A stretch of DNA of 64,000 bases, from IMG/VR virus record IMGVR_UViG_3300032050_000002; one strand, 5' to 3'. The translations under genes were made by a program, and so were the position numbers. This document shows positions 11,064-40,408 of this stretch, one piece after another (the first letter of the stretch is position 1; every line of letters begins with the position of its first letter). The DNA comes from a virus (lineage: Duplodnaviria; Caudoviricetes). The notes beneath the pieces were generated by a model. It was not told where the DNA came from and did not search any database. It saw nothing but the letters and a program-made list of their open reading frames with translations.

Positions 11064-11096
11064 TAAACCCTCGACAAAAATCGGGGGTTTTTTATT
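11064..11096 (+). terminator. Intrinsic terminator
   Basis: aaaccctcga-caaaaa-tcgggggtttttt. Confidence 0.75.
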
Positions 11097-11113: not shown

Positions 11114-11356
11114 ATGGCAATATTAAAAGAAGAAATTAATGGAACAAAAATTATTAATGAAATTCAATCATCTAATATTAGAAAAACCGAATACGATACG
11201 GAAAATAAAACATTATTAGTTGAGTTTAATAATGGTATGAAATACGAGTATCAAGAAGTTCCTCATCAGTTATACACCCAATTCAGAATGTCAGAATCTC
11301 AGGGTAAATTCTTTAGCTCAAAAATTGCAAAAACATTTAAATACAAGAAAATATGA
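11114..11356 (+). CDS. KTSC domain protein
   Basis: IQSSNIRKTEYD...LLVEFNNG..YEY..VP..Y..F....S.GKFF pattern. Confidence 0.88.
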   Translation: MAILKEEINGTKIINEIQSSNIRKTEYDTENKTLLVEFNNGMKYEYQEVPHQLYTQFRMSESQGKFFSSKIAKTFKYKKI

Positions 11357-11387
11357 TAAATCCTTATTTAAGAATATTTATTTAATT

Positions 11388-13664
11388 ATGGATAATCTTA
11401 AAAGCATTTTATCAAGTTTTAAATTAAAAAATGAACTAAACTCTAAAGTTTGGGAAAAATCCAAAAAAGAAGGATATACATTAAACCCAAAAGTTAGAAC
11501 TAACCTATTAGAAATATCTTACGATTTTATTGAGTCTTTAAAAGTTGATGTTGTTATCAGTGATATAATAATGACAGGTTCTTTGGCTAATTATAATTGG
11601 TCGAACTATTCAGATATTGATTTACATATTATTGCGGATTTCGGACAATTTTCAAAAAACGTGAGGTCTTTATACGAAGAATTATTTAGACTAAAAAAGA
11701 CGGTTTACGGAGCGAAACACGATATTAAAATATTTGGTTATGACGTTGAATTGTACGTTGAGGACGAATCAATAGCTAGAGATGTTAAAGGAGCGGGAAG
11801 GTATTCAATTTTGCATAATGAATGGACCGTAAAACCACCTAAAGAATCGTTCAAAATAAGAGAAAAAGATATTAAAGAAAAGGCTAAAAAATGGATGAAA
11901 ATAATTGATGGTGTTGAAGAAACTATTCAAGATGAGGATATTGAGTCAGCTAAAAAATTATTAAAAAAATATACTGAAAAAATTAGAAAATATAGAGAAT
12001 GTGGATTAGAAAAAGGTGGGGAATATTCTGATGAAAATTTAGTATTTAAAATTTTAAGAAGAAACGGTTATTTAGACAGGTTAAAAGACATGAAAAATAA
12101 ATTAATAGATAAAAAATTATCTATTAAAGAGTCGATAACTACAATTGGAGACGAATTTAAAGTTGATTTAGAAAACGGTCCCGCTAATCACGGAAAAAGG
12201 GCGTTTGGTAATTGGCAATCAGACAATGCTTGGGATGTTTTTGCTCCCGCCGGCACCGTAGTTAATTCATATACCGATGGAGTGGTATCTAAAGTCTACG
12301 ACAATGGTAAAAGGTCTGGTAAAGTTTTTGGAACTCAGATTAATGTAAAAGGTGAAAATGGATATCCTGATATTTTTTACACACATCTTACTAATGTTAA
12401 ACTATCTTCGGGAGATAAAGTTAATGTCGGGGATTATATTGGTGAAATTATACAATGGTGTGTGGATGAAAATTGTTCTAAAAAAATGGATGGAACTCAT
12501 GTTCATATTGGTTTACCGAGAGGAAATCATTTAAAAGATTTAATCAATGATAAGGTATTTAAAGGTGGTGATGGTAAAAATATGAAATATGAAAAACACG
12601 ATAGTTTTTTATCATCTTTATTTAGTTTATTTGGTCTTAGTGGTAAATCAAAAGATAAGAATTTTGAAAAAATTGTTGATGATGTGGGAGACTCTAAATT
12701 TTTAAAATCTATAATTGATATTATAGATTCTGATAAAATTTTAAAGAATATAAAAACTCCAAAATCAAAAATACCTTATGATAAAGATGTTGAGATTATT
12801 CAAACCGCACTACAATTTTTAGGATTTTCATTACCTAAATGGGGAGTAGACGGTTTATTTGGTCCTGAAACACAAAGAGCGGTAGAATCTTTTGAAGAAA
12901 AAAATTCATTAAAAGTGGATGGAGAATTAAATAGCAATGATTTAAAAGTTTTATTAAGTAATCTATCTGAAAAGGGATTTACTGATGAAAAACTAAGCGG
13001 TATTCAGAGAGATTCTGATTTCGTAGTTAATGGTCAAATCGATTTAAGTAAAGGAAAATTTAATGGAGAACAATTAAAAAATATAAATCTAATTATTAAT
13101 GAGCTTAATAATAAAGGTATTACAAATCCATATACTCAAGCAGGTATTTTATCCGTTATAGGTAAAGAATCTAATTTTAATACATATAAAGAAATTGGGT
13201 ATAGTAATACCTCAAATTCAAGAATACGAAATATTTTTGGTAGAAGAGTGTCTAAATATTCTGATTCTGAATTATCAAGATTAAAACAAAATGATGAAGA
13301 TTTTTTTGATGCGATGTATGGGATGAATTCAGGTATGAAATTAGGTAACACAATGCCTGGTGACGGTTGGAGATATGTTGGTAGGGGTATGAATGGACTT
13401 ACGGGTAGAGCAAATTATAGAAAATATGGTAATATGATAGGAGTTGATTTAGAATCTAACCCCGAAAAAGTAGAAGACCCTGAAATTGCTGCAAAGGTGG
13501 CGGTTGCGTTTTTTACAAAAAATAAACCACCTCAAAGTATTCCTAATTTTGAGAACAAACAAGACGCAGTTAACTACTTTGCGGATATTAATGCCGGGGG
13601 TCGTTCATCATTCTCAAGAGAGGCTGCCGATAAATACTCTACAAGTTTTGATGTTATTGCTTAA
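11388..13664 (+). CDS. Multidomain fusion: Pol-beta-like nucleotidyltransferase + M23-like peptidase + peptidoglycan-binding domain + GH19-like lysozyme
   Basis: GSLANYNWSNYSDIDLH/DVELYVE; YTHL..HVHIG; IQTAL..LG..VDGLFGPET..AV..FE; KES..KE..WRYVGRGMNGLTGRANY; start moved to 11388 (ATATTTAT 11374-11381). Confidence 0.85.
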   Translation: MDNLKSILSSFKLKNELNSKVWEKSKKEGYTLNPKVRTNLLEISYDFIESLKVDVVISDIIMTGSLANYNWSNYSDIDLHIIADFGQFSKNVRSLYEELFRLKKTVYGAKHDIKIFGYDVELYVEDESIARDVKGAGRYSILHNEWTVKPPKESFKIREKDIKEKAKKWMKIIDGVEETIQDEDIESAKKLLKKYTEKIRKYRECGLEKGGEYSDENLVFKILRRNGYLDRLKDMKNKLIDKKLSIKESITTIGDEFKVDLENGPANHGKRAFGNWQSDNAWDVFAPAGTVVNSYTDGVVSKVYDNGKRSGKVFGTQINVKGENGYPDIFYTHLTNVKLSSGDKVNVGDYIGEIIQWCVDENCSKKMDGTHVHIGLPRGNHLKDLINDKVFKGGDGKNMKYEKHDSFLSSLFSLFGLSGKSKDKNFEKIVDDVGDSKFLKSIIDIIDSDKILKNIKTPKSKIPYDKDVEIIQTALQFLGFSLPKWGVDGLFGPETQRAVESFEEKNSLKVDGELNSNDLKVLLSNLSEKGFTDEKLSGIQRDSDFVVNGQIDLSKGKFNGEQLKNINLIINELNNKGITNPYTQAGILSVIGKESNFNTYKEIGYSNTSNSRIRNIFGRRVSKYSDSELSRLKQNDEDFFDAMYGMNSGMKLGNTMPGDGWRYVGRGMNGLTGRANYRKYGNMIGVDLESNPEKVEDPEIAAKVAVAFFTKNKPPQSIPNFENKQDAVNYFADINAGGRSSFSREAADKYSTSFDVIA

Positions 13665-13730: not shown

Positions 13731-14984
13731 ATGGGAAATTTAAAACCAATTGGAAGTGAAAAACTTCAAGGTATGGATAAAATTAATAGAATTCTTGAAA
13801 TTGCAAGATATAAGGAAAATAAACCAAACCCTATTAATGAGGATAAATCTATTGAATATCGTAAAACTTTAAGTGATAATAACAATTATCAAATCGTTAA
13901 AGAAAAAAACGGATACGTTATCACTAAAGCAATTAATGAATCTGAGTTTGAATATATTGAACCTATGAAAAATAGAAAATATTATTCTTCGTATTCACAA
14001 GCAATGAAAAGATTAAATTTAATTGCTAAAGAAGTTAATACTAATGTAGGTTACGATAAAAATGTTTCTCTTTTTTACGAAAGTGATAATAATGAAACAA
14101 AATTTTACTTAAAAGTAAATGCTAATGAGCAAGCACCTCCTGCACCAGCACCTGCACCCGCTCCAGCACCTGCACCCGCTCCTGAACCTATGCCTGAACC
14201 ATCACCTGAAGAAACTCCAACTGATGAATTACCTGAACCTGAAATGGATACAGATACTACTCCTGAAGATGATACAGATAAAGAAGAGGTTGTTACATTT
14301 AAAACAATACAAAAATTAACAGGTAAATTAGCACAAAAAATAAGAACGTTAGCTTCTGATGAAGAAAATCCTATGTCTTCAAAAGACATAAAATATGTTA
14401 TAAATTCAATTTTATCCGCACTTGATTTAAATTCTTTAGAACCTGAAGATAAAGAGCAAATTATGGCAAAATTTGAAGGTGAGGAAGATATGGATAATGT
14501 TGGAGGTGATGAGGAATCATCAGTTCCTGATGAGGAAATGCCGGAACCTGAAGAAGTGTCTGCAGAAGCTCCACCAGCTCCTGAAGGAGAAATGAGTGAA
14601 GAATTTGATGAAGACTATACTATGAGAGGTGCTAGAAAAAGAAGAAAAAAAATTCATCCTGATTTAACTGATGAAGAATCTGATGCTATGTCAGAAATGG
14701 TAGAAAGTTTATTTTCTGAATCAAAAGTTGATAGTATTTTAAAAAGTTATTTCAAATACGATAAAAAAGAAAAAGAAGTTATTAAAGAACAAAAAGAAAA
14801 CAAAAAAGAAATAAAAAATAAAATAAAAACTATTTCTGAAAATGTTGTTCAAGAAGTTGCAACTTTAAAATTTATCGAAAAAAATCCAAAAGCAAAATTA
14901 GTTGGTAAAACTTTAAATAAAACAATAGTATTTGAACAAAATAATAAAAGATATTTAATTACTCCAAAGGGACAAGTTAAGTGA
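13731..14984 (+). CDS. Hypothetical virion-associated protein with (PA)n and acidic low-complexity linkers
   Basis: 417-aa ORF; INE/MSE/ISE motifs; upstream ATATTTAT 13692-13699. Confidence 0.7.
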   Translation: MGNLKPIGSEKLQGMDKINRILEIARYKENKPNPINEDKSIEYRKTLSDNNNYQIVKEKNGYVITKAINESEFEYIEPMKNRKYYSSYSQAMKRLNLIAKEVNTNVGYDKNVSLFYESDNNETKFYLKVNANEQAPPAPAPAPAPAPAPAPEPMPEPSPEETPTDELPEPEMDTDTTPEDDTDKEEVVTFKTIQKLTGKLAQKIRTLASDEENPMSSKDIKYVINSILSALDLNSLEPEDKEQIMAKFEGEEDMDNVGGDEESSVPDEEMPEPEEVSAEAPPAPEGEMSEEFDEDYTMRGARKRRKKIHPDLTDEESDAMSEMVESLFSESKVDSILKSYFKYDKKEKEVIKEQKENKKEIKNKIKTISENVVQEVATLKFIEKNPKAKLVGKTLNKTIVFEQNNKRYLITPKGQVK

Positions 14985-15391
14985 ATTATTTAATTTACAT
15001 AAATGAATTAGGTCCTAACTATAAAGGAGATAATATATATGAATTTATTTTTTCTGATACGTTAGAAAATATTTGGGGAGACTCTTGGGAGTCAAAACCC
15101 GCCAATGATTATCCACAACCGCCTGAATTAAATTTTGTAAAAAAAGTTGGGATATTAAAAAATAATTTAGTATCTTTGTCTGTGATTCAAAAATCGGATT
15201 ACTTCTCAATGATTGACGCTATGGATGACGTAATTGCATTAGGATGGGAAAACGAATCTGATAGTATAAATTTTGACATTGATAAAAGATTAGTTTTTAG
15301 GTTTGGAGAAACAGAAGAAACTGTTAAAAATAAACTATACGAAAGAGATTTAATTCTCGAATTTGAAAAAAACGTTGTATATGAAAACTAA
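14981..15391 (+). CDS. Hypothetical protein (GTG start)
   Basis: 136-aa ORF overlapping the upstream stop. Confidence 0.65.
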   Translation: MNYLIYINELGPNYKGDNIYEFIFSDTLENIWGDSWESKPANDYPQPPELNFVKKVGILKNNLVSLSVIQKSDYFSMIDAMDDVIALGWENESDSINFDIDKRLVFRFGETEETVKNKLYERDLILEFEKNVVYEN

Positions 15392-16292
15392 ACAAAAAAT
15401 GTTAAAATTAATGGAGTATGGTTTAAAACCAAAAACTTTATCAGATTTGTCAGAGTCTCAAATTAATTCATTATATTTGCGATTAATGGAGACAAAGAAA
15501 GAAAATAAAGAAGAAACAAAAACTGAAGTTACTAATTTAACTTTTGACCCTGGAAACAATGGTGACCAACAAAAATTAGCTCAAAAAGGTATACACGTTG
15601 ACCCCACAACTAAAAAAATTACAATGACAACATCGTCAACAGGTGCAATTACTGAAAAGGAGTTGGATGAGTCCTTTGAATCCAAAAAAAAACAAAAACA
15701 TTTCTACTCAAAATGTGGAGATGGAAAAACAAAAGAACAAAAAAAATGGTGTAAAATGGCAAAAGAATTTTCAGACAAAACAAATTTTAAAAAGTTACCA
15801 GAAAAAAAGAAAGAAACTAAAGAAAGTAGTAACTATCAAAATATTGTAAAAAATACCGCGGCACAACTATATAAAAATAATCTTGGTAAAACACTTTCAC
15901 CTCAATTTGAGAGTAAATTAGAGAAGCAAATAACAAAATTATTGGAGGACAACATGAATCCAAAAATGTCTAAAAGAGATTTTATAAAATTGATTTTTGA
16001 AATGGATTACCCGGGAACTAAAGAAAAAGAACCGGACACAAAACCTGTTACAGAACCAACACCTGATATTGATTATGACCCATTTAATGACCCAGACCCG
16101 GATGCCCCTGAAGCAAGAAGTCCTTTAGAGGCTCCACCAAAACCTGATACAAAACCAAAACCTGTTACAGAACCAACACCTGATATTGATTATGACCCAT
16201 TTAATGACCCAGACCCGGATGCCCCTGAAGCAAGAGGAGGAGGATTTTCAATGTTTATGAAACAAGTAATGAATAAAGGAATGTTAAAATAA
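15381..16292 (+). CDS. Hypothetical protein with duplicated 26-aa acidic Pro-rich segment
   Basis: Start moved to ATG 15381; KPVTEPTPDIDYDPFNDPDPDAPEAR x2; small Cys pair KCG...WC. Confidence 0.7.
   Translation: MKTKQKMLKLMEYGLKPKTLSDLSESQINSLYLRLMETKKENKEETKTEVTNLTFDPGNNGDQQKLAQKGIHVDPTTKKITMTTSSTGAITEKELDESFESKKKQKHFYSKCGDGKTKEQKKWCKMAKEFSDKTNFKKLPEKKKETKESSNYQNIVKNTAAQLYKNNLGKTLSPQFESKLEKQITKLLEDNMNPKMSKRDFIKLIFEMDYPGTKEKEPDTKPVTEPTPDIDYDPFNDPDPDAPEARSPLEAPPKPDTKPKPVTEPTPDIDYDPFNDPDPDAPEARGGGFSMFMKQVMNKGMLK
16040..16235 (+). repeat. Exact 79-bp direct duplication (16040-16118 and 16157-16235)
   Basis: aaaacctgttacagaacc...cctgaagcaaga occurs twice, period 117 bp. Confidence 0.9.
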
Positions 16293-16299
16293 TATACAA

Positions 16300-17919
16300 A
16301 TGAGTTTAAATCACAGAATAGAAAAAATATTAAAAGTTAAAAACAATCTTGATAATAAATTAATCAATGAAGGTTTAACAAAAAAAGAAAAAAATCTTTT
16401 AGATAAAATTAATGTTCTTACGGAAGACGCGATGTCATTTGACCCTGAAAGTCTTGGCGGAGCAAGACCAAGTAGAACTTTACAATCAAAAATTGAAAGG
16501 GGTGAATTACCTCTTAGTAAATTTGGTTTAACTCAAGCTCAAGTAGATTTTTTTACTTCTGAAGCATTTAAAGATTCGGTTAATAGATTAGAAGAATTAT
16601 TAGGTAGAAGTTCAGGTGTTAGTCGTAGTTTAACAATCGCGAATAGAAATCTTAAAACTGATGCAAGAACCGCGTTTAGTACTTTTATGGGTGTTGTTGG
16701 TGAGTTAATGGGAGAACTGATGTCTTTACAAATGGCAAACAAAGAAGAACTTGAACAGATTGCAACGGAATCTGTTGAGAAAGCTATGGGTATTGATAGA
16801 GAATTTTTTGATAAAAAATTAAAATTAGACGGTAAATTTACTACAGGTTTTTTATCCAAACTAAAAGGGATGAAAAACAAAATTGAAAAAATATCAGATG
16901 AGGAAATTGCAAATAAATTTGCTGATATTGACGCTGAAAAACAACAAAAAATCGAAGACTTAAAAAGAGATATTGAATCCGCCGGAGTTGAGGTTGATGA
17001 AGAAAAAGTTAAGCAGGCAGTAGAGTCAACATTTCAAATATCACCACAAACATTAGAAAAAGCAAAAAATGAATTTTCTGATGAAGTGTCGAGAAGAATG
17101 ATTATCAATATGTTTAGAAGAGGTATGTCATTGTATTATGCAAACGCGTACGATATTTGTGAAGATAAGATAAGAGAATTACCTGATGGAGATAGAATTA
17201 TAGAACTATCAAATGTTATCCAACCTATAATGTTACATATGTATTGGTTATTTGATGATATTGGAGGTGTCGGAGCAGGTGGAGGTGGTCACATTGGTCA
17301 AATTCAAGTTAAGCCACCACAATCTCAAGGTTCAGAAGAAGGAGGGTCGGATGAGGAAGAAGAGGATGAAGAACCTGAAACCCCTAAAAGACCTGAACCA
17401 CCAAAACAACAATCTAAAAGTCAGTCAGGTCCTTTTATAATTCAAGCAAGAGCGGGAACATTACCTTTACTTGTTCATGAATTAGTTAAAGGTGTTATTA
17501 TGTTCTTTACATCTGCCGGAGGTAAAGGAAGTCCTGAACAAAGACAATTAGCGAAAAAGGCATCTACGTCATTGGAAACCGAGGCTTATGATTTGGTATA
17601 TAGTGAAAAATTTTATATTGAATTTTATAAAATTTACAATAAAGTTGTAACCGATGTTACAGAACAAAGAGAATTGACTCCGTTCTTATTAAAGTTCTTG
17701 TCTGAAGAAAATAAGGATGTTCTTTTTAGACTAACAAAATCATTATTTACTTTAGGGTTAGAAGAACCTGAATTTGCGGAAATGTATATTAAAGGTATTG
17801 TTGAGAAGTCAAGAAAACTTAGAAAGAAGATGGAACAAAATCCTTCTTATGTTAAGAAAAAACAATATGGGTCAAGTGAAGATTCTGATTCAGGTTGGGA
17901 TTTTGATTTAGATATTTAA
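16300..17919 (+). CDS. Hypothetical protein (539 aa), probably head-associated
   Basis: Long ORF directly upstream of the terminase; LINE/LTE motifs near the N-terminus. Confidence 0.7.
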   Translation: MSLNHRIEKILKVKNNLDNKLINEGLTKKEKNLLDKINVLTEDAMSFDPESLGGARPSRTLQSKIERGELPLSKFGLTQAQVDFFTSEAFKDSVNRLEELLGRSSGVSRSLTIANRNLKTDARTAFSTFMGVVGELMGELMSLQMANKEELEQIATESVEKAMGIDREFFDKKLKLDGKFTTGFLSKLKGMKNKIEKISDEEIANKFADIDAEKQQKIEDLKRDIESAGVEVDEEKVKQAVESTFQISPQTLEKAKNEFSDEVSRRMIINMFRRGMSLYYANAYDICEDKIRELPDGDRIIELSNVIQPIMLHMYWLFDDIGGVGAGGGGHIGQIQVKPPQSQGSEEGGSDEEEEDEEPETPKRPEPPKQQSKSQSGPFIIQARAGTLPLLVHELVKGVIMFFTSAGGKGSPEQRQLAKKASTSLETEAYDLVYSEKFYIEFYKIYNKVVTDVTEQRELTPFLLKFLSEENKDVLFRLTKSLFTLGLEEPEFAEMYIKGIVEKSRKLRKKMEQNPSYVKKKQYGSSEDSDSGWDFDLDI

Positions 17920-17938: not shown

Positions 17939-17973
17939 TTAACCCTCATTTAAGAAATTAAATGGGGGTTTTT
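17939..17973 (+). terminator. Intrinsic terminator
   Basis: aaccctcattta-agaaat-taaatgggggttttt. Confidence 0.7.
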
Positions 17974-23723: not shown

Positions 23724-24440
23724 ATGAAATTTGGTATTATAAAATCAAAAATAGAAAAAGTATTATTAGAATCTTACTCTAATAACACATTTAAAGACGA
23801 AATTAAAAACTTTAATTATTTAGTTTTAGCAAATAAAAATTTAAGTAAACTATATTACTTGTATGATGAATTAAACTCCAACAAAGGATTAAATGAATCT
23901 GTTGCGAAAGACTATATTAACGAGTCAATTAAAATTTACGAAAATACCTTAAATAAAATAACTGAATCAGATTTAAAAAAATTAAATATTTGGTTATCTG
24001 ATGTTAAATGTAACAACATTTATGAACACGTTGATAACGTTTTTAATTTAGATGTGTTAAACATAGAATCAAATATCAAAGCAAAAAAAGTTGTTACTGA
24101 GTCATTAAAAAGAACTCCTATTAAAAAACAAGAACCTGTTAATATTCCTATTAGTGCAATGGTTAAGGTCGCAAACAAAACAATCTCAAACTACGTAGAG
24201 AATTTAAATGAGTCTGAAAAACAAGAATTAACAAGACTTCTTAAAGAAGACGACAAAGATTTAAAGTTAAAATTTCAATTAGTTAAAGAAAGTCTTTTGA
24301 CAAAATTAGAGAATATGAAATCATCTGAATCGGACGTAACAATTCATTCAAGAATAGATGAAACATTAACAAAAGTTTCTTCAGAAAAATACGACAAGTT
24401 AACTTACTTTAAGTTAAAGAATTTAAACGAAAATCTTTAA
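23724..24440 (+). CDS. Hypothetical head-module protein
   Basis: 238-aa ORF between portal and protease; many LLE/LNE/INE sites. Confidence 0.7.
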   Translation: MKFGIIKSKIEKVLLESYSNNTFKDEIKNFNYLVLANKNLSKLYYLYDELNSNKGLNESVAKDYINESIKIYENTLNKITESDLKKLNIWLSDVKCNNIYEHVDNVFNLDVLNIESNIKAKKVVTESLKRTPIKKQEPVNIPISAMVKVANKTISNYVENLNESEKQELTRLLKEDDKDLKLKFQLVKESLLTKLENMKSSESDVTIHSRIDETLTKVSSEKYDKLTYFKLKNLNENL

Positions 24441-24625
24441 TTTGATTTAAACTTTTTTTGAACGTAAATTGCCTTCTTTAGAGAGTCCCTGTCCTTTACG
24501 GATTTTTTGGTGTACTCTTTTCTCTCAATCAATTCAGATTGTTGTCTTGTCTTAATAATCTTACTTTTGTAAATCTTCAGAGCTTTTTCAAGCGACATAT
24601 TTTTATCTAATTTTACAATAATCAT
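24437..24625 (-). CDS. rpsU: 30S ribosomal protein bS21 (62 aa)
   Basis: MIIVKL...SLEKALKIYKSK...RKEYTKKSV..R...KKAIY matches the S21 pattern; start moved to ATG 24625. Confidence 0.88.
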   Translation of the reverse strand: MIIVKLDKNMSLEKALKIYKSKIIKTRQQSELIERKEYTKKSVKDRDSLKKAIYVQKKFKSN

Positions 24626-25203: not shown

Positions 25204-25926
25204 ATGGAATTAAAGATTTTAAAACCCGGACAATCAGGTAAGGGAATCCTTATCGAAGAAGATGCGGGCTATATTTCCCCAACGGATAGTAGAAATATGG
25301 ACATTATTAAAGAGTCCAAAAATATGTTAGACCACTCAAAACCATTTGAGTTTTATGCCGTATTACAGAAATACAATACACCAAATAGAAACGGTAGAGT
25401 TTACCCTGAAAATATCTTAAAAAGAGAGTCTCAGAATTATAAAAAAATGATTGAGAAGGGAACTTCTCTTTCTGAATTAAATCACCCTGAATCATCTTTA
25501 ATTGATTTGGATAGAGTATCTCACATTATTACAGATATTTGGTGGGACGGACCTATTCTAATGGGTAAACTTAAATTATTAACTTCACCAGGTTTTCATG
25601 AAAGAGGAATTGTATCAACAAAAGGAGATATGGCGGCAAACTATTTAAGACAGGGAGTGACTTTAGGTATATCATCAAGAGGAGTTGGCTCACTTAAAAA
25701 AGTTGGTGAACAAAATGAAGTTCAAGATGATTTTGAATTAATTTGTTTTGACTTAGTGTCTTCTCCATCTACACCTGGTGCGTATCTATTCTTAAATCCT
25801 GACGAAAGAACCAAATTTGAAGAGAACATTGAAGAAGAAAAAAAGATGAGAGATACAAATTCTTTGGGAGTTAACGATAAAAGTATTGACTTAATGAAAA
25901 AATTAAACGATTATTTGGGATATTAA
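25204..25926 (+). CDS. gp21: Prohead core protease (T4 gp21-like, S80/U9)
   Basis: NRNGRVY, ELNHP, GISSRGVGS, FDLVSSPSTPGA. Confidence 0.95.
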   Translation: MELKILKPGQSGKGILIEEDAGYISPTDSRNMDIIKESKNMLDHSKPFEFYAVLQKYNTPNRNGRVYPENILKRESQNYKKMIEKGTSLSELNHPESSLIDLDRVSHIITDIWWDGPILMGKLKLLTSPGFHERGIVSTKGDMAANYLRQGVTLGISSRGVGSLKKVGEQNEVQDDFELICFDLVSSPSTPGAYLFLNPDERTKFEENIEEEKKMRDTNSLGVNDKSIDLMKKLNDYLGY

Positions 25927-38947: not shown

Positions 38948-40408
38948 TTATTTGTAATCTACAATCTGAAATTTAATTTGTTTCTTATAAGTATTCACTT
39001 CTCCCGAAGATTCCACTTTTAAATCTATATAATACTCATTTGGTATTTTATCTCTTGTATCAAATATAAAATAATACTCATTTGGAGTTCTATTAATTTT
39101 TGTCCAATCTTGGACTTGAACTTCCGTTTGTCCTTCTCTCACATAAATTCTATAAAAAGCGTCAACTTTTTGTAATAATTTATTCGTTGTATATGCTTGT
39201 TTTATAACAACACCAACTTTTCTAATATCGGTGTTAAATATTTTTTCATCTTGTTTAATTCCGTAATAATCAAACCCATATATCTTTGGGTCTTGAGATG
39301 TTGTCCCAATTTGATAAACACTTTTAAATGGTTGTAATGTAAACTCATTTAGTAATGGATTTAATGGAAATGTGTCAACACTTAGGTCATACCATTTATC
39401 TGTAAAGGTACAAGGTGTTTTATAACCCGATAACGGAGGAACAATAACTTCGTACACCCCTTTAGTTCTTTGGCAAGTTGTAAGACCTGTAAGACCGGCA
39501 ATAGGATTACCAGCATTATCTAATATATCGACTAAAGGATTATTATCTAAATTAATTGGGTTTCCGTTTTCATAAAGATATAGATATAATTTATTTGTTT
39601 TTCCTAAACTAAATAAATTTCTATCATCATCAATTAAATCGTTATAAGACGATTCTAAAAATGGTTCGTAAAATGTTTGTGTGTGTCTTGTAAAAAATTG
39701 AACTTCATAAACATCTGTTAACCCTGTTAAGTTTTCTAATTGGGGTTTAAACGCTACCACCCATCCAGTAATACCTGATAAAGAATTATCTAATATTGCG
39801 TTTATCTCATCTGTCATATCAAACTCGATATTTTCATTACCAAATTCAAAATGTTGAGTTGCAACCTCAACTAACGAAGAATATGGTACGGGTCCGATAT
39901 TTTTATTATTATAAATTCCATCCTCAGTCCAAACTCCTAATGTAGTTGTTTGAAACCAGTTTGATGGTCTATCTGAAAAATTTTTATCGATTTCTACATT
40001 ATATTGCAAGTCGGCAAAATCATAACCAACTCCCTCATCCCAAATTTGAGGTGTTTCGGGGTCGTCATTAATATATGGAATTCTAAGTAGAACCAAATCA
40101 AATGATGTTGCTCTTTGTCTTCCTTGGGATGTTGATGTATTTAAAAAATCAAAATTAAATGACGTTGTGTTCGTCATTCTTAAAATATGTTTCATACCTC
40201 CATCGCAAGGAGATATTGTACCATCATTATATTTTTGTTTTAGTAATGTTAAATCTAAATCAAAAATGAATCTACTATACCCACTAGGATATTGAGATGT
40301 TAATAAATTACCAAAGAATAATTCCGTAACAGGATTTCTTCCCGTATTGGTAAAACTATTTGAAATTATTGTATTGTTTTTACTGAAATAAGAATTAGTA
40401 ATTGACAT
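38948..40408 (-). CDS. Putative baseplate/tail structural protein
   Basis: 486-aa beta-rich ORF next to the gp5-like gene; minus-strand ATATTTAT 40427-40434. Confidence 0.55.
   Translation of the reverse strand: MSITNSYFSKNNTIISNSFTNTGRNPVTELFFGNLLTSQYPSGYSRFIFDLDLTLLKQKYNDGTISPCDGGMKHILRMTNTTSFNFDFLNTSTSQGRQRATSFDLVLLRIPYINDDPETPQIWDEGVGYDFADLQYNVEIDKNFSDRPSNWFQTTTLGVWTEDGIYNNKNIGPVPYSSLVEVATQHFEFGNENIEFDMTDEINAILDNSLSGITGWVVAFKPQLENLTGLTDVYEVQFFTRHTQTFYEPFLESSYNDLIDDDRNLFSLGKTNKLYLYLYENGNPINLDNNPLVDILDNAGNPIAGLTGLTTCQRTKGVYEVIVPPLSGYKTPCTFTDKWYDLSVDTFPLNPLLNEFTLQPFKSVYQIGTTSQDPKIYGFDYYGIKQDEKIFNTDIRKVGVVIKQAYTTNKLLQKVDAFYRIYVREGQTEVQVQDWTKINRTPNEYYFIFDTRDKIPNEYYIDLKVESSGEVNTYKKQIKFQIVDYK

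Follow-up and report, generated by a model that had tools for sequence, protein, structure and literature searches.

Why would a phage join a nucleotidyltransferase to enzymes that cut the bacterial cell wall, and where would such a protein act? The question is raised by a gene in IMG/VR record IMGVR_UViG_3300032050_000002, a stretch of 64,000 nucleotides (nt) from a large freshwater phage (Duplodnaviria; Caudoviricetes), which at its full length is here termed the window. The open reading frame (ORF) concerned runs uninterrupted from 11388 to 13664 on the + strand and encodes a protein of 758 amino acids (aa; protein P0001) with four modules, in the order Pol-beta-type nucleotidyltransferase (NT), atypical M23-like peptidase, PG_binding_1 domain and GH19 endolysin-type glycosidase, and it is referred to below as the NT-lysin protein. 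A sequence-only reading of the window had taken it to be a virion-packaged polyprotein that is cut by a T4-type prohead protease into an injected nucleotidylating effector and a murein-degrading entry enzyme. The explanation that we prefer, although we give it somewhat less than an even chance, is that of an NT effector delivered by the virion, with accessory entry lysins attached to it. The evidence that carries it consists of the identities of the domains and their conserved catalytic residues, the fixed position of the gene beside the head module, a late-type motif before it, the repeated gain and loss of cargo behind the NT part, and the detection of one free NT homologue in purified virions.

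Architecture of the NT-lysin protein

The ATG at 11388 is taken as the true start because homologues share the N-terminal sequence M-x-N-L-K-S-I-L; an alternative TTG start at 11325, used in one automatic gene call, would overlap the KTSC gene upstream. The four-domain anatomy given in the sequence-only reading was borne out by Pfam, PHROG, phmmer and Foldseek and by the conserved residues. In the predicted full-length model the modules are arranged like beads on a string (predicted template-modelling score, pTM, 0.35), with low-confidence linkers at residues 244-272 and 387-405, and neither a signal peptide nor a membrane segment was found in the 758 residues. The same architecture occurs in hundreds of metagenomic proteins from several sources, with 47-82% identity within the aligned set, and hence the fusion is neither a one-off nor an assembly artefact.

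A large phage family of nucleotidyltransferases

By sequence and predicted fold, the N-terminal part of the protein is a Pol-beta nucleotidyltransferase, catalytically competent in appearance, of a large uncharacterised phage family. It spans residues 1-248 (11388-12131, + strand) and comprises the nucleotidyltransferase core followed by a C-terminal four-helix bundle. The catalytic motifs are G64-S65, D76-x-D78 and E121, and these are kept in every sequence covering the respective column of a 25-member alignment of fusions, while the GS, DxD and E columns are also invariant in 67 homologues of mixed architecture and 22 free ones, so that the intact GS..DxD..E motif on which the sequence-only reading was built is a property of fused and free forms alike. 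The residues that are invariant across free and fused members include GS, S-D-x-D-x-H, E121, W146, P150, R203, G211, N217, K221 and R224, a pattern that favours catalysis over a purely structural role.

The AlphaFold model of the domain (predicted local distance difference test, pLDDT, 88) contains the alpha/beta core fold of nucleotidyltransferases, together with the Pol-beta hG[GS] and [DE]x[DE] motifs and the third carboxylate. The top Foldseek matches in the PDB are almost all nucleotidyltransferases, which supports the fold, though at template-modelling (TM) scores of 0.27 or less. Among sequence families, PHROG 36119, which has no assigned function, matches residues 12-245 (E 1.7e-37), and the match to Pfam NTP_transf_2 is weak and falls just under the cut-off (E 0.005, 17.7 bits). 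An exhaustive HMMER search with residues 1-250 returned 3,962 cluster representatives at E <=0.001 and 1,175 at E <=1e-30, and the size of the family, counted as clusters at 50% identity, is therefore given as about 4,000. It is found in Lak megaphages, huge phages, T4-like cyanophages, Flavobacteriia phages and others. All 45 GenBank phage records with NT encode it unfused, as a protein of about 240 aa, the carriers being Lak megaphages, huge phages, cluster-C T4-like cyanophages, the Maribacter phages Molly and Colly and Caulobacter phage Cr30, while AlphaFold DB clusters and the ESM Atlas contain solely unnamed relatives, almost exclusively viral. Literature searches for a nucleotidyltransferase-lysin fusion or for the NT family found nothing.

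Several leads point to possible substrates and are offered as leads only: the domain layout is like that of the antibiotic nucleotidyltransferases (ANT), there is a weak match to DrrA, and the sets of fusion partners fit nicotinamide adenine dinucleotide (NAD) or nucleotide metabolism or RNA repair. The DrrA match was obtained with phmmer against the PDB at E 0.046 and is aligned over the GS..DxD region only, and Pfam SidM_N weakly matches two NT relatives. The top Foldseek match is the CdnE structure 6wt9 (E 4.6e-4), but at a TM score of only 0.23, and the NT part has about 245 aa and a simple four-helix bundle, the cGAS-like bilobed fold having about 300 aa or more and a long spine helix. 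The RNA-repair nucleotidyltransferase RlaP (PMC7824862) was considered and rejected, the Pfam scan having given only NTP_transf_2 and Polbeta for the NT region. A wide search with VIA-align returned mostly generic helical bundles, and nothing in it hinted at a function for the C-terminal half of NT.

The lysin modules

The second module is an atypical M23-like metallopeptidase (residues 250-386, including a conserved N-terminal segment; 12135-12545, + strand), assigned from Pfam, conserved residues and Foldseek. Pfam Peptidase_M23 covers residues 280-376 with 35.8 bits against a cut-off of 28.7. The residue at the position of the first zinc ligand is aspartate (D279 in SDNAWD; D279-N-A-W-D283), which gives DxxxD where the canonical family has HxxxD, and this aspartate is shared by 23 of 25 homologues, the other two, with histidine, having a canonical M23 domain at the same place. 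The remaining residues expected of the family, D283, H333, H371 and H373, are invariant, and the HxH motif, the catalytic histidine and the M23 fold are all present. Foldseek matches comprise LytU, LytM, lysostaphin and EnpA, with TM scores (target-normalised) of about 0.5 for LytU, LytM and EnpA, and also touch the cyanophage A4 pre-ejectosome protein 9k2v.

The PG_binding_1 domain (residues 466-520; 12783-12947, + strand) is recognised by Pfam PF01471 at E 1.7e-11 (44.5 bits against a cut-off of 23). It is followed by the GH19 endolysin-type glycosidase (residues about 560-758; 13065-13661, + strand), for which Pfam Glyco_hydro_19 falls short of its cut-off (22.6 bits, under 25.5) and which was assigned from phmmer, Foldseek and a conserved motif. 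The match to the SPN1S endolysin 4ok7 has a phmmer E of 2e-14 and a Foldseek TM score of 0.65 (target-normalised), and the catalytic residues E594 and E602 and the motif GRG..LTG..NY (G665-R-G...T672-G...N676-Y) are kept in all 13 GH19-type relatives. No paralogues of the M23-like or GH19 modules were found elsewhere in the window. The joining of an Asp-for-His M23 variant to a GH19 domain is unusual and of practical interest for enzybiotics.

Free and fused nucleotidyltransferases at one locus

The locus was compared with 80 IMG/VR loci and one 298-kb ENA contig, all with the gene order of the window and together referred to as the clade, the complete members of which are 304-322 kb long, two of them with direct terminal repeats. 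The shared order is p373, an M20-type peptidase, a ClpB/ClpC-like ATPase on the opposite strand, sometimes a UVR-motif protein, a KTSC protein and NT, followed by p417, p136, p309, sometimes p539, the terminase large subunit, a T4-type portal, p238 and an S77 protease. The NT position is fixed, beside the head module, and its content varies: in about 40 loci the protein is free, with 243-259 aa, and p417 comes directly next, about 33 have NT fused in frame to further domains (the cargo), and in four of the approximately 37 cargo-bearing loci (L056 and L061-L063) NT is followed by a separate inserted gene. The cargo may be an M23-like domain alone (about 431-454 aa), M23-like and PG-binding domains (646-737 aa), these two with GH19 (768-783 aa), or a PG-binding domain with other C-terminal domains (558-770 aa), and PF18013, a family of phage tail lysozymes, is among the alternatives. 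A tree of NT inferred by maximum likelihood requires at least six changes of the fused or free state, and well-supported branches force at least three of them. Since the cargo is almost always in frame, the NT part appears to give the cargo something, and incorporation into the virion suggests itself as the simplest candidate for what that is.

Outside the clade, the NT domain is joined to a wider set of partners, namely GNAT, HIGH-type cytidylyltransferase-like, NUDIX, Zeta-toxin-like kinase, 2H/Acb1-like, ankyrin and MORN domains and, among wall enzymes, VanY, Amidase_2, glucosaminidase and tail lysozyme. This breadth matches the domain repertoire of the polyvalent proteins, for which delivery with DNA is proposed (PMC5512222), and is suggestive in that respect. 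A fusion in the reverse order, with M23 ahead of NT, is also known (931-aa protein, in the stretch 811-3990 of locus L086); the gene directly after it matches Pfam Acb5, an anti-CBASS family (CBASS being antiphage signalling that works through cyclic oligonucleotides).

Late-type context and virion evidence

The late-type motif TATTTAT (11375-11381, + strand) lies 6 nt before the ATG of the NT-lysin gene and is conserved in related loci, where it precedes the NT start in 77 of 78 cases, starting at about -12 (occasionally at -9, -11, -26 or -28), amid divergent sequence. The same motif is found before p417 (68/78), p238 (44/46), the protease (18/21), the terminase (42/75) and the portal (35/62), and is rare before KTSC (6/74). 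In the window itself, the octamer TATTTATA occurs in gene orientation no more than 45 nt upstream of 14 of the 62 genes, versus about 0.56 expected, and 11 of these 14 genes belong to the structural block 13731-34401. Most genes of that block have it, and it stands 11-38 nt before the gene starts at 13731, 17996, 19771, 20244, 23724, 25204, 26231, 27308, 31925, 33010 and 34401 on the + strand, and at 40408 and 44656 on the - strand. The T4 late promoter TATAAATA was rejected as the window's element, given that none of the 62 genes has it in gene orientation and that the enriched motif is TATTTATA. TATTTAT/TATTTATA may be read as a late-promoter-like element of this phage clade, in which case NT, whether free or fused, would be expressed with the virion genes.

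The strongest evidence from elsewhere comes from cyanophage S-CREM2, whose ORF156 (126012-126725) is a free NT homologue (36% identity over its full length, E 1e-40) and is among the proteins that mass spectrometry identified in virions purified on CsCl (6 unique peptides, 15.2% coverage; PMC10665884 Table 3). The same virion proteome, of 52 proteins, also contains the products of the adjacent ORF155 (5 peptides) and of ORF154, which encodes a cytidylyltransferase (3 peptides; PMC10665884). Packaging of the NT family is plausible because of this finding, which is supportive, not decisive; for the NT-lysin protein, the packaging proposed in the sequence-only reading gains from the late-type context and from a homologue that is distant. 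Cluster-C cyanophages keep a run of three genes encoding a HIGH-type cytidylyltransferase, a small hypothetical protein and NT (S-CREM2 124608-126725, locus L097; S-CRM01 g127-g125, locus L002). Cytidylyltransferase-like domains are fused to NT elsewhere (P0242 and P0235), on contigs that, like those of the GNAT fusions, are too short to give a gene context, and no similarity between that part of P0242 and S-CREM2 ORF154 was detectable by BLAST.

Delivery in the virion or a cytoplasmic role

In the explanation that we prefer, the NT-lysin protein would be made together with the structural gene products, its NT part would take it into the virion, and it would be delivered at the next infection, when the lysin modules may help to open the murein locally and the NT domain would transfer a nucleotide from a nucleoside triphosphate to a host or phage target. 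That the NT-lysin protein itself is packaged, where in the particle it resides, that it is delivered, on which substrate it acts and whether or not it is cleaved are all matters that we infer. Ejection proteins can also counter host defence (preprint 10.1101/2025.07.23.666291).

Several points weigh against delivery in the virion. The virion support comes from one distant homologue outside the clade, with a low peptide count in a sensitive 52-protein proteome, and free homologues in cyanophages and in Maribacter phage Molly are located among non-structural genes. The functions of NT and lysin are separable, since half of the clade has NT without a lysin. T4-like myoviruses normally carry their entry lysozyme on the baseplate hub, and a protein that is stored in the head presumably leaves by way of the tail tube, possibly without ever coming into contact with the murein. 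Furthermore, a PG-binding domain followed by a catalytic domain, as in phiKZ gp144, and GH19, as in SPN1S, are features of the endolysins of phages with Gram-negative hosts.

These endolysin features lead directly to the main competing explanation, which is possible, though we regard it as unlikely: a late nucleotidyltransferase that stays in the cytoplasm and is not packaged, to which a neighbouring lysin has been fused for shared expression, and whose appended accessory endolysin reaches the wall only through holin lesions at lysis. The combined PG-binding and GH19 part is like stand-alone endolysins (best match SPN1S; PHROG 181 'endolysin'), and relatives that lack NT have a stand-alone gene of this kind (about 275 aa) and an M23-like gene (about 232 aa) elsewhere in the genome. 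The two halves also occur as two genes in L056, where a free NT is followed by its own 346-aa PG-binding gene, the start codon of which overlaps the NT tail, while the sister locus L050 has a fusion, and the repeated gain or loss of the fusion fits the same picture. Independent genes, however, are not expected to fuse as regularly as is seen in the clade, with in-frame cargo in about 33 of about 37 cargo-bearing loci, and the relatives keep other lysins. A search of five related genomes, four of them complete (305-322 kb), showed a separate gene for an Amidase_2 protein (about 200 aa) in every one and a separate SLT match in four, three of these above the family cut-off, small lysins that are able to serve as endolysin and because of which the fused lysin is regarded as accessory rather than the sole candidate endolysin. 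No holin-like, spanin or other membrane-protein gene was found adjoining the NT-lysin gene, which, together with the other murein hydrolases in the five related genomes, sets it apart from a canonical lysis-cassette endolysin. The presence of a free NT homologue in virions and the existence of the reverse-order fusion of M23 and NT likewise argue against a purely cytoplasmic protein.

Virion delivery can also be framed more broadly. NT might serve jumbo phages as the constant 'handle' in a polymorphic system of effectors delivered by the virion; it would load itself and any cargo placed behind D-K-x-L-S-L-K-E (wall hydrolases, acetyltransferases, phosphoesterases, kinases), be cut at the junction by the S77 protease and nucleotidylate a host target once injected. 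We consider this extended proposal doubtful; if true, it would be a phage counterpart of MuF- or Rhs-type cargo systems built on a new enzyme family.

The junction and the prohead protease

The cut proposed in the sequence-only reading is more specific: the protein would be packed into the prohead and cut by the S77 protease after I-K-E248 to give an injected nucleotidyltransferase and a separate murein hydrolase. The junction L-S-I-K-E-S (residues 244-249; 12117-12134, + strand) lies at the end of the last NT helix, as defined by the model and by the C-termini of free homologues. A suitable enzyme is indeed encoded in the window, where the T4-type prohead protease (Peptidase_S77; 25204-25926, + strand; Pfam PF03420 E 8.6e-23, PHROG 207) is accompanied by T4-type portal and gp23-type capsid genes, and the appeal to such a protease was sound to that extent. 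The site is well placed, since in the AlphaFold model of NT the helix stops at residue 244 and pLDDT drops from residue 248, at the start of a disordered linker, and most close fusions have [LI]-K-E followed by Ser, Ala or Gly. The two genes of L056 also show that the halves are able to work as separate polypeptides.

The use of LSIKE as evidence of processing did not survive comparison with the free proteins. In free NT proteins, whether they come from this clade or from distant phages, the sequence finishes with D-K-x-L-S-[LMI]-K-[EQ] and then 0-8 residues: within the clade the C-termini read ...LSLKE with 2-8 further residues, ...LSMKQ-stop or ...LSIK-stop, and that of the S-CREM2 protein reads ...LSLK-stop. 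The junction is thus not shaped as a protease site because it is the natural C-terminus of free NT proteins, in which a cut would take off just 0-8 residues. In the divergent fusions of L026-L031 and L046 the corresponding sequence is L-S-I-E, L-S-M-E or L-S-L-E, with Ser and not Leu or Ile at P3, a misfit to (L/I)-x-E. The whole protein contains eight [LI]xE sites, against about nine expected by chance from a rough estimate based on residue frequencies, and no T4-type leader ending in (L/I)-x-E, and hence no recognisable T4-type capsid-targeting leader, was found in the first 20 residues of the conserved NT N-terminus, the first such site ending at E42. Cleavage at LSIKE, at the edge of a disordered linker and with a following Ser, Ala or Gly, is possible with no specific support, and the proposal in its complete form, of prohead packing followed by this cut, is in our view improbable.

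A different possibility is that NT nucleotidylates an amino-sugar or nucleotide-sugar precursor of the wall and so blocks the making of the wall from within the cell while the hydrolases act on the wall itself; the recurrence of fusions between NT and wall enzymes would then be accounted for. Zeta toxins, which phosphorylate uridine diphosphate N-acetylglucosamine (UDP-GlcNAc), are a model for such an activity. The two-domain layout of NT resembles that of ANT(4'), AAD(9), ANT(6) and LinB, which adenylylate sugar hydroxyls, the fused wall enzymes are many (M23, VanY, Amidase_2, glucosaminidase, lysozymes and PG_binding_1), and Zeta-toxin-like kinase, HIGH-type cytidylyltransferase-like and GNAT domains are among the other partners. 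However, structural likeness to the ANT enzymes is weak (TM scores of 0.28 or less), the same partners fit NAD or nucleotide metabolism or RNA repair equally, and the free NT genes of the clade have no wall enzyme attached, which makes this possibility a very remote one. Finally, the idea of a misassembly chimera, or of a pseudogene with a lost stop codon that is functionless as a fusion, had nothing in its favour and was ruled out, with negligible probability remaining, by the hundreds of independent proteins that keep both the architecture and all catalytic residues.

Genomic neighbourhood

The gene directly upstream of the NT-lysin gene encodes a KTSC-domain protein (11114-11356, + strand; Pfam KTSC E 5e-18), which is the constant upstream neighbour of the NT gene, at a distance of 16-60 nt in nearly all clade loci that cover it. 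KTSC-NT as a universal pair was rejected, and the pairing is specific to this clade, because the genes upstream of NT in Molly and S-CRM01 are not KTSC. A terminator-like hairpin just before KTSC (11065-11090, + strand) closes the preceding unit and a second (17941-17970, + strand), before the terminase large subunit gene, ends the unit that runs from KTSC to p539, so that the two bracket this unit. Between the NT-lysin and terminase genes lie four co-oriented genes with no assigned function (417, 136, 309 and 539 aa; 13731-17919, + strand), the order of which is conserved. For p417, p136, p309, p539 and the other proteins of this kind in the head block, no match was found in Pfam, PHROG or NCBIfam, even at E 1. 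The first of the four, p417 (13731-14984), is strongly acidic and has a (PA)n run, and p309 (15363-16292) contains two copies of a Pro/Asp-rich unit of about 30 residues; both keep their place in the clade.

Some other genes of the head module and of related loci are of interest in their own right. The gp23-type major capsid protein (29909-31819) has 636 aa, with the main Pfam Gp23 match confined to residues 368-621, and within the first 60 residues of its long extra N-terminal region [LI]xE sites are clustered. The capsid and endonuclease VII genes are followed closely by the gene for a second PG_binding_1 protein (33010-34146, 378 aa), in which no catalytic domain could be recognised; its N-terminus is similar to that encoded by the separate PG-binding gene after NT in L056. 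In L046, L069 and L070 the portal ORF is 922-1046 aa long and matches the portal of the window in two stretches, which suggests an insertion, either an intein or an added domain. A gene like that for ribosomal protein S21 (24440-24583, - strand) lies inside the head module, between p238 and a 153-aa gene, and is 83% identical to the Pfam-annotated S21 gene of the relative L003.

Significance

With its invariant catalytic residues and about 4,000 clusters, the NT family is among the larger unstudied families of phage enzymes. The fusions studied here tie it to the virion and entry side of the phage, and one published virion proteome backs this link. The occurrence of free and fused forms at the same locus is a natural experiment. 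If the enzyme is injected, it would join T4 Alt among the effectors that modify the host early, as a class of its own that is new, and the cargo-swapping locus would illustrate the way in which jumbo phages vary the proteins they deliver. Without injection, the family remains a clean target for finding a new nucleotidyl-transfer reaction.

Comparison with known systems

Each part of the NT-lysin protein has a counterpart in a known system. The NT domain shares with ANT(4')/KNTase, AAD(9), ANT(6) and LinB a length of about 250 aa and an N-terminal Pol-beta core (GS, DxD and third carboxylate) followed by a helical bundle. These enzymes are among its best Foldseek matches in the PDB, with TM scores of 0.19-0.28 and a whole-chain root-mean-square deviation above 12 A. 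They differ in that there is no significant sequence similarity and their substrate residues cannot be mapped onto NT, and the likeness is one of layout, not of family membership. The C-terminal 300 residues share their domain order with the endolysins of phages with Gram-negative hosts, such as phiKZ gp144 and SPN1S (4ok7); SPN1S is the best match by both sequence and structure, and phiKZ gp144 is also among the Foldseek matches. Here, unlike in those enzymes, the module forms the C-terminal end of a protein of 758 residues and is preceded by a nucleotidyltransferase and an M23-like domain.

Peptidoglycan hydrolases that act at entry are carried in virions by other phages: phi29 gp13 combines a lysozyme with an M23 domain, and T7 gp16 is an internal core protein with a transglycosylase domain. 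The NT-lysin protein is like these in that a single late protein unites a peptidase of M23 type with a glycosidase, lacks a signal sequence and has no holin partner nearby. It differs in that phi29 gp13 and T7 gp16 have no nucleotidyltransferase and in that its gene adjoins head and packaging rather than tail genes, its own place in the virion being a presumed one. T4 Alt is an ADP-ribosyltransferase, and the internal proteins of T4 are packaged in the head, trimmed by the protease, which cuts the N-terminal leader at (L/I)-x-E, and injected. The likeness to these proteins is one of concept, a late enzyme that would be stored in a T4-type head and injected to modify the host, and an S77 protease is present here as well. 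The T4 internal proteins have a cleaved targeting leader, whereas none is recognisable in the NT-lysin protein.

The closest analogy in organisation is provided by the polyvalent proteins (Iyer, Burroughs, Anand, de Souza and Aravind 2017, PMC5512222), which likewise combine unrelated enzymes in one chain and are encoded beside virion or packaging genes, and for which the proposed logic is delivery together with DNA, in virions or by conjugation. The domains listed for them (PMC5512222) include GNAT, 2H phosphoesterase, zeta-toxin-like kinase, lysozymes and DD-peptidases, all of which are also NT partners. They typically carry a self-processing zincin metallopeptidase, and the NT-lysin protein differs in this respect, Pfam and PHROG having found no zincin domain in it. 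The Pol-beta nucleotidyltransferase described among them is minimal in form and joined to ArdC-N, reports of it being confined to the conjugative elements of Firmicutes, and neither the NT family nor its fusion to lysins is described there (PMC5512222). The lysin domains are thus ordinary, and both multi-domain virion lysins and polyvalent proteins are known kinds; the new elements are the NT family as such, the fact that it is repeatedly fused to wall hydrolases at one fixed place next to the head module in a clade of jumbo phages, and its link to a virion proteome.

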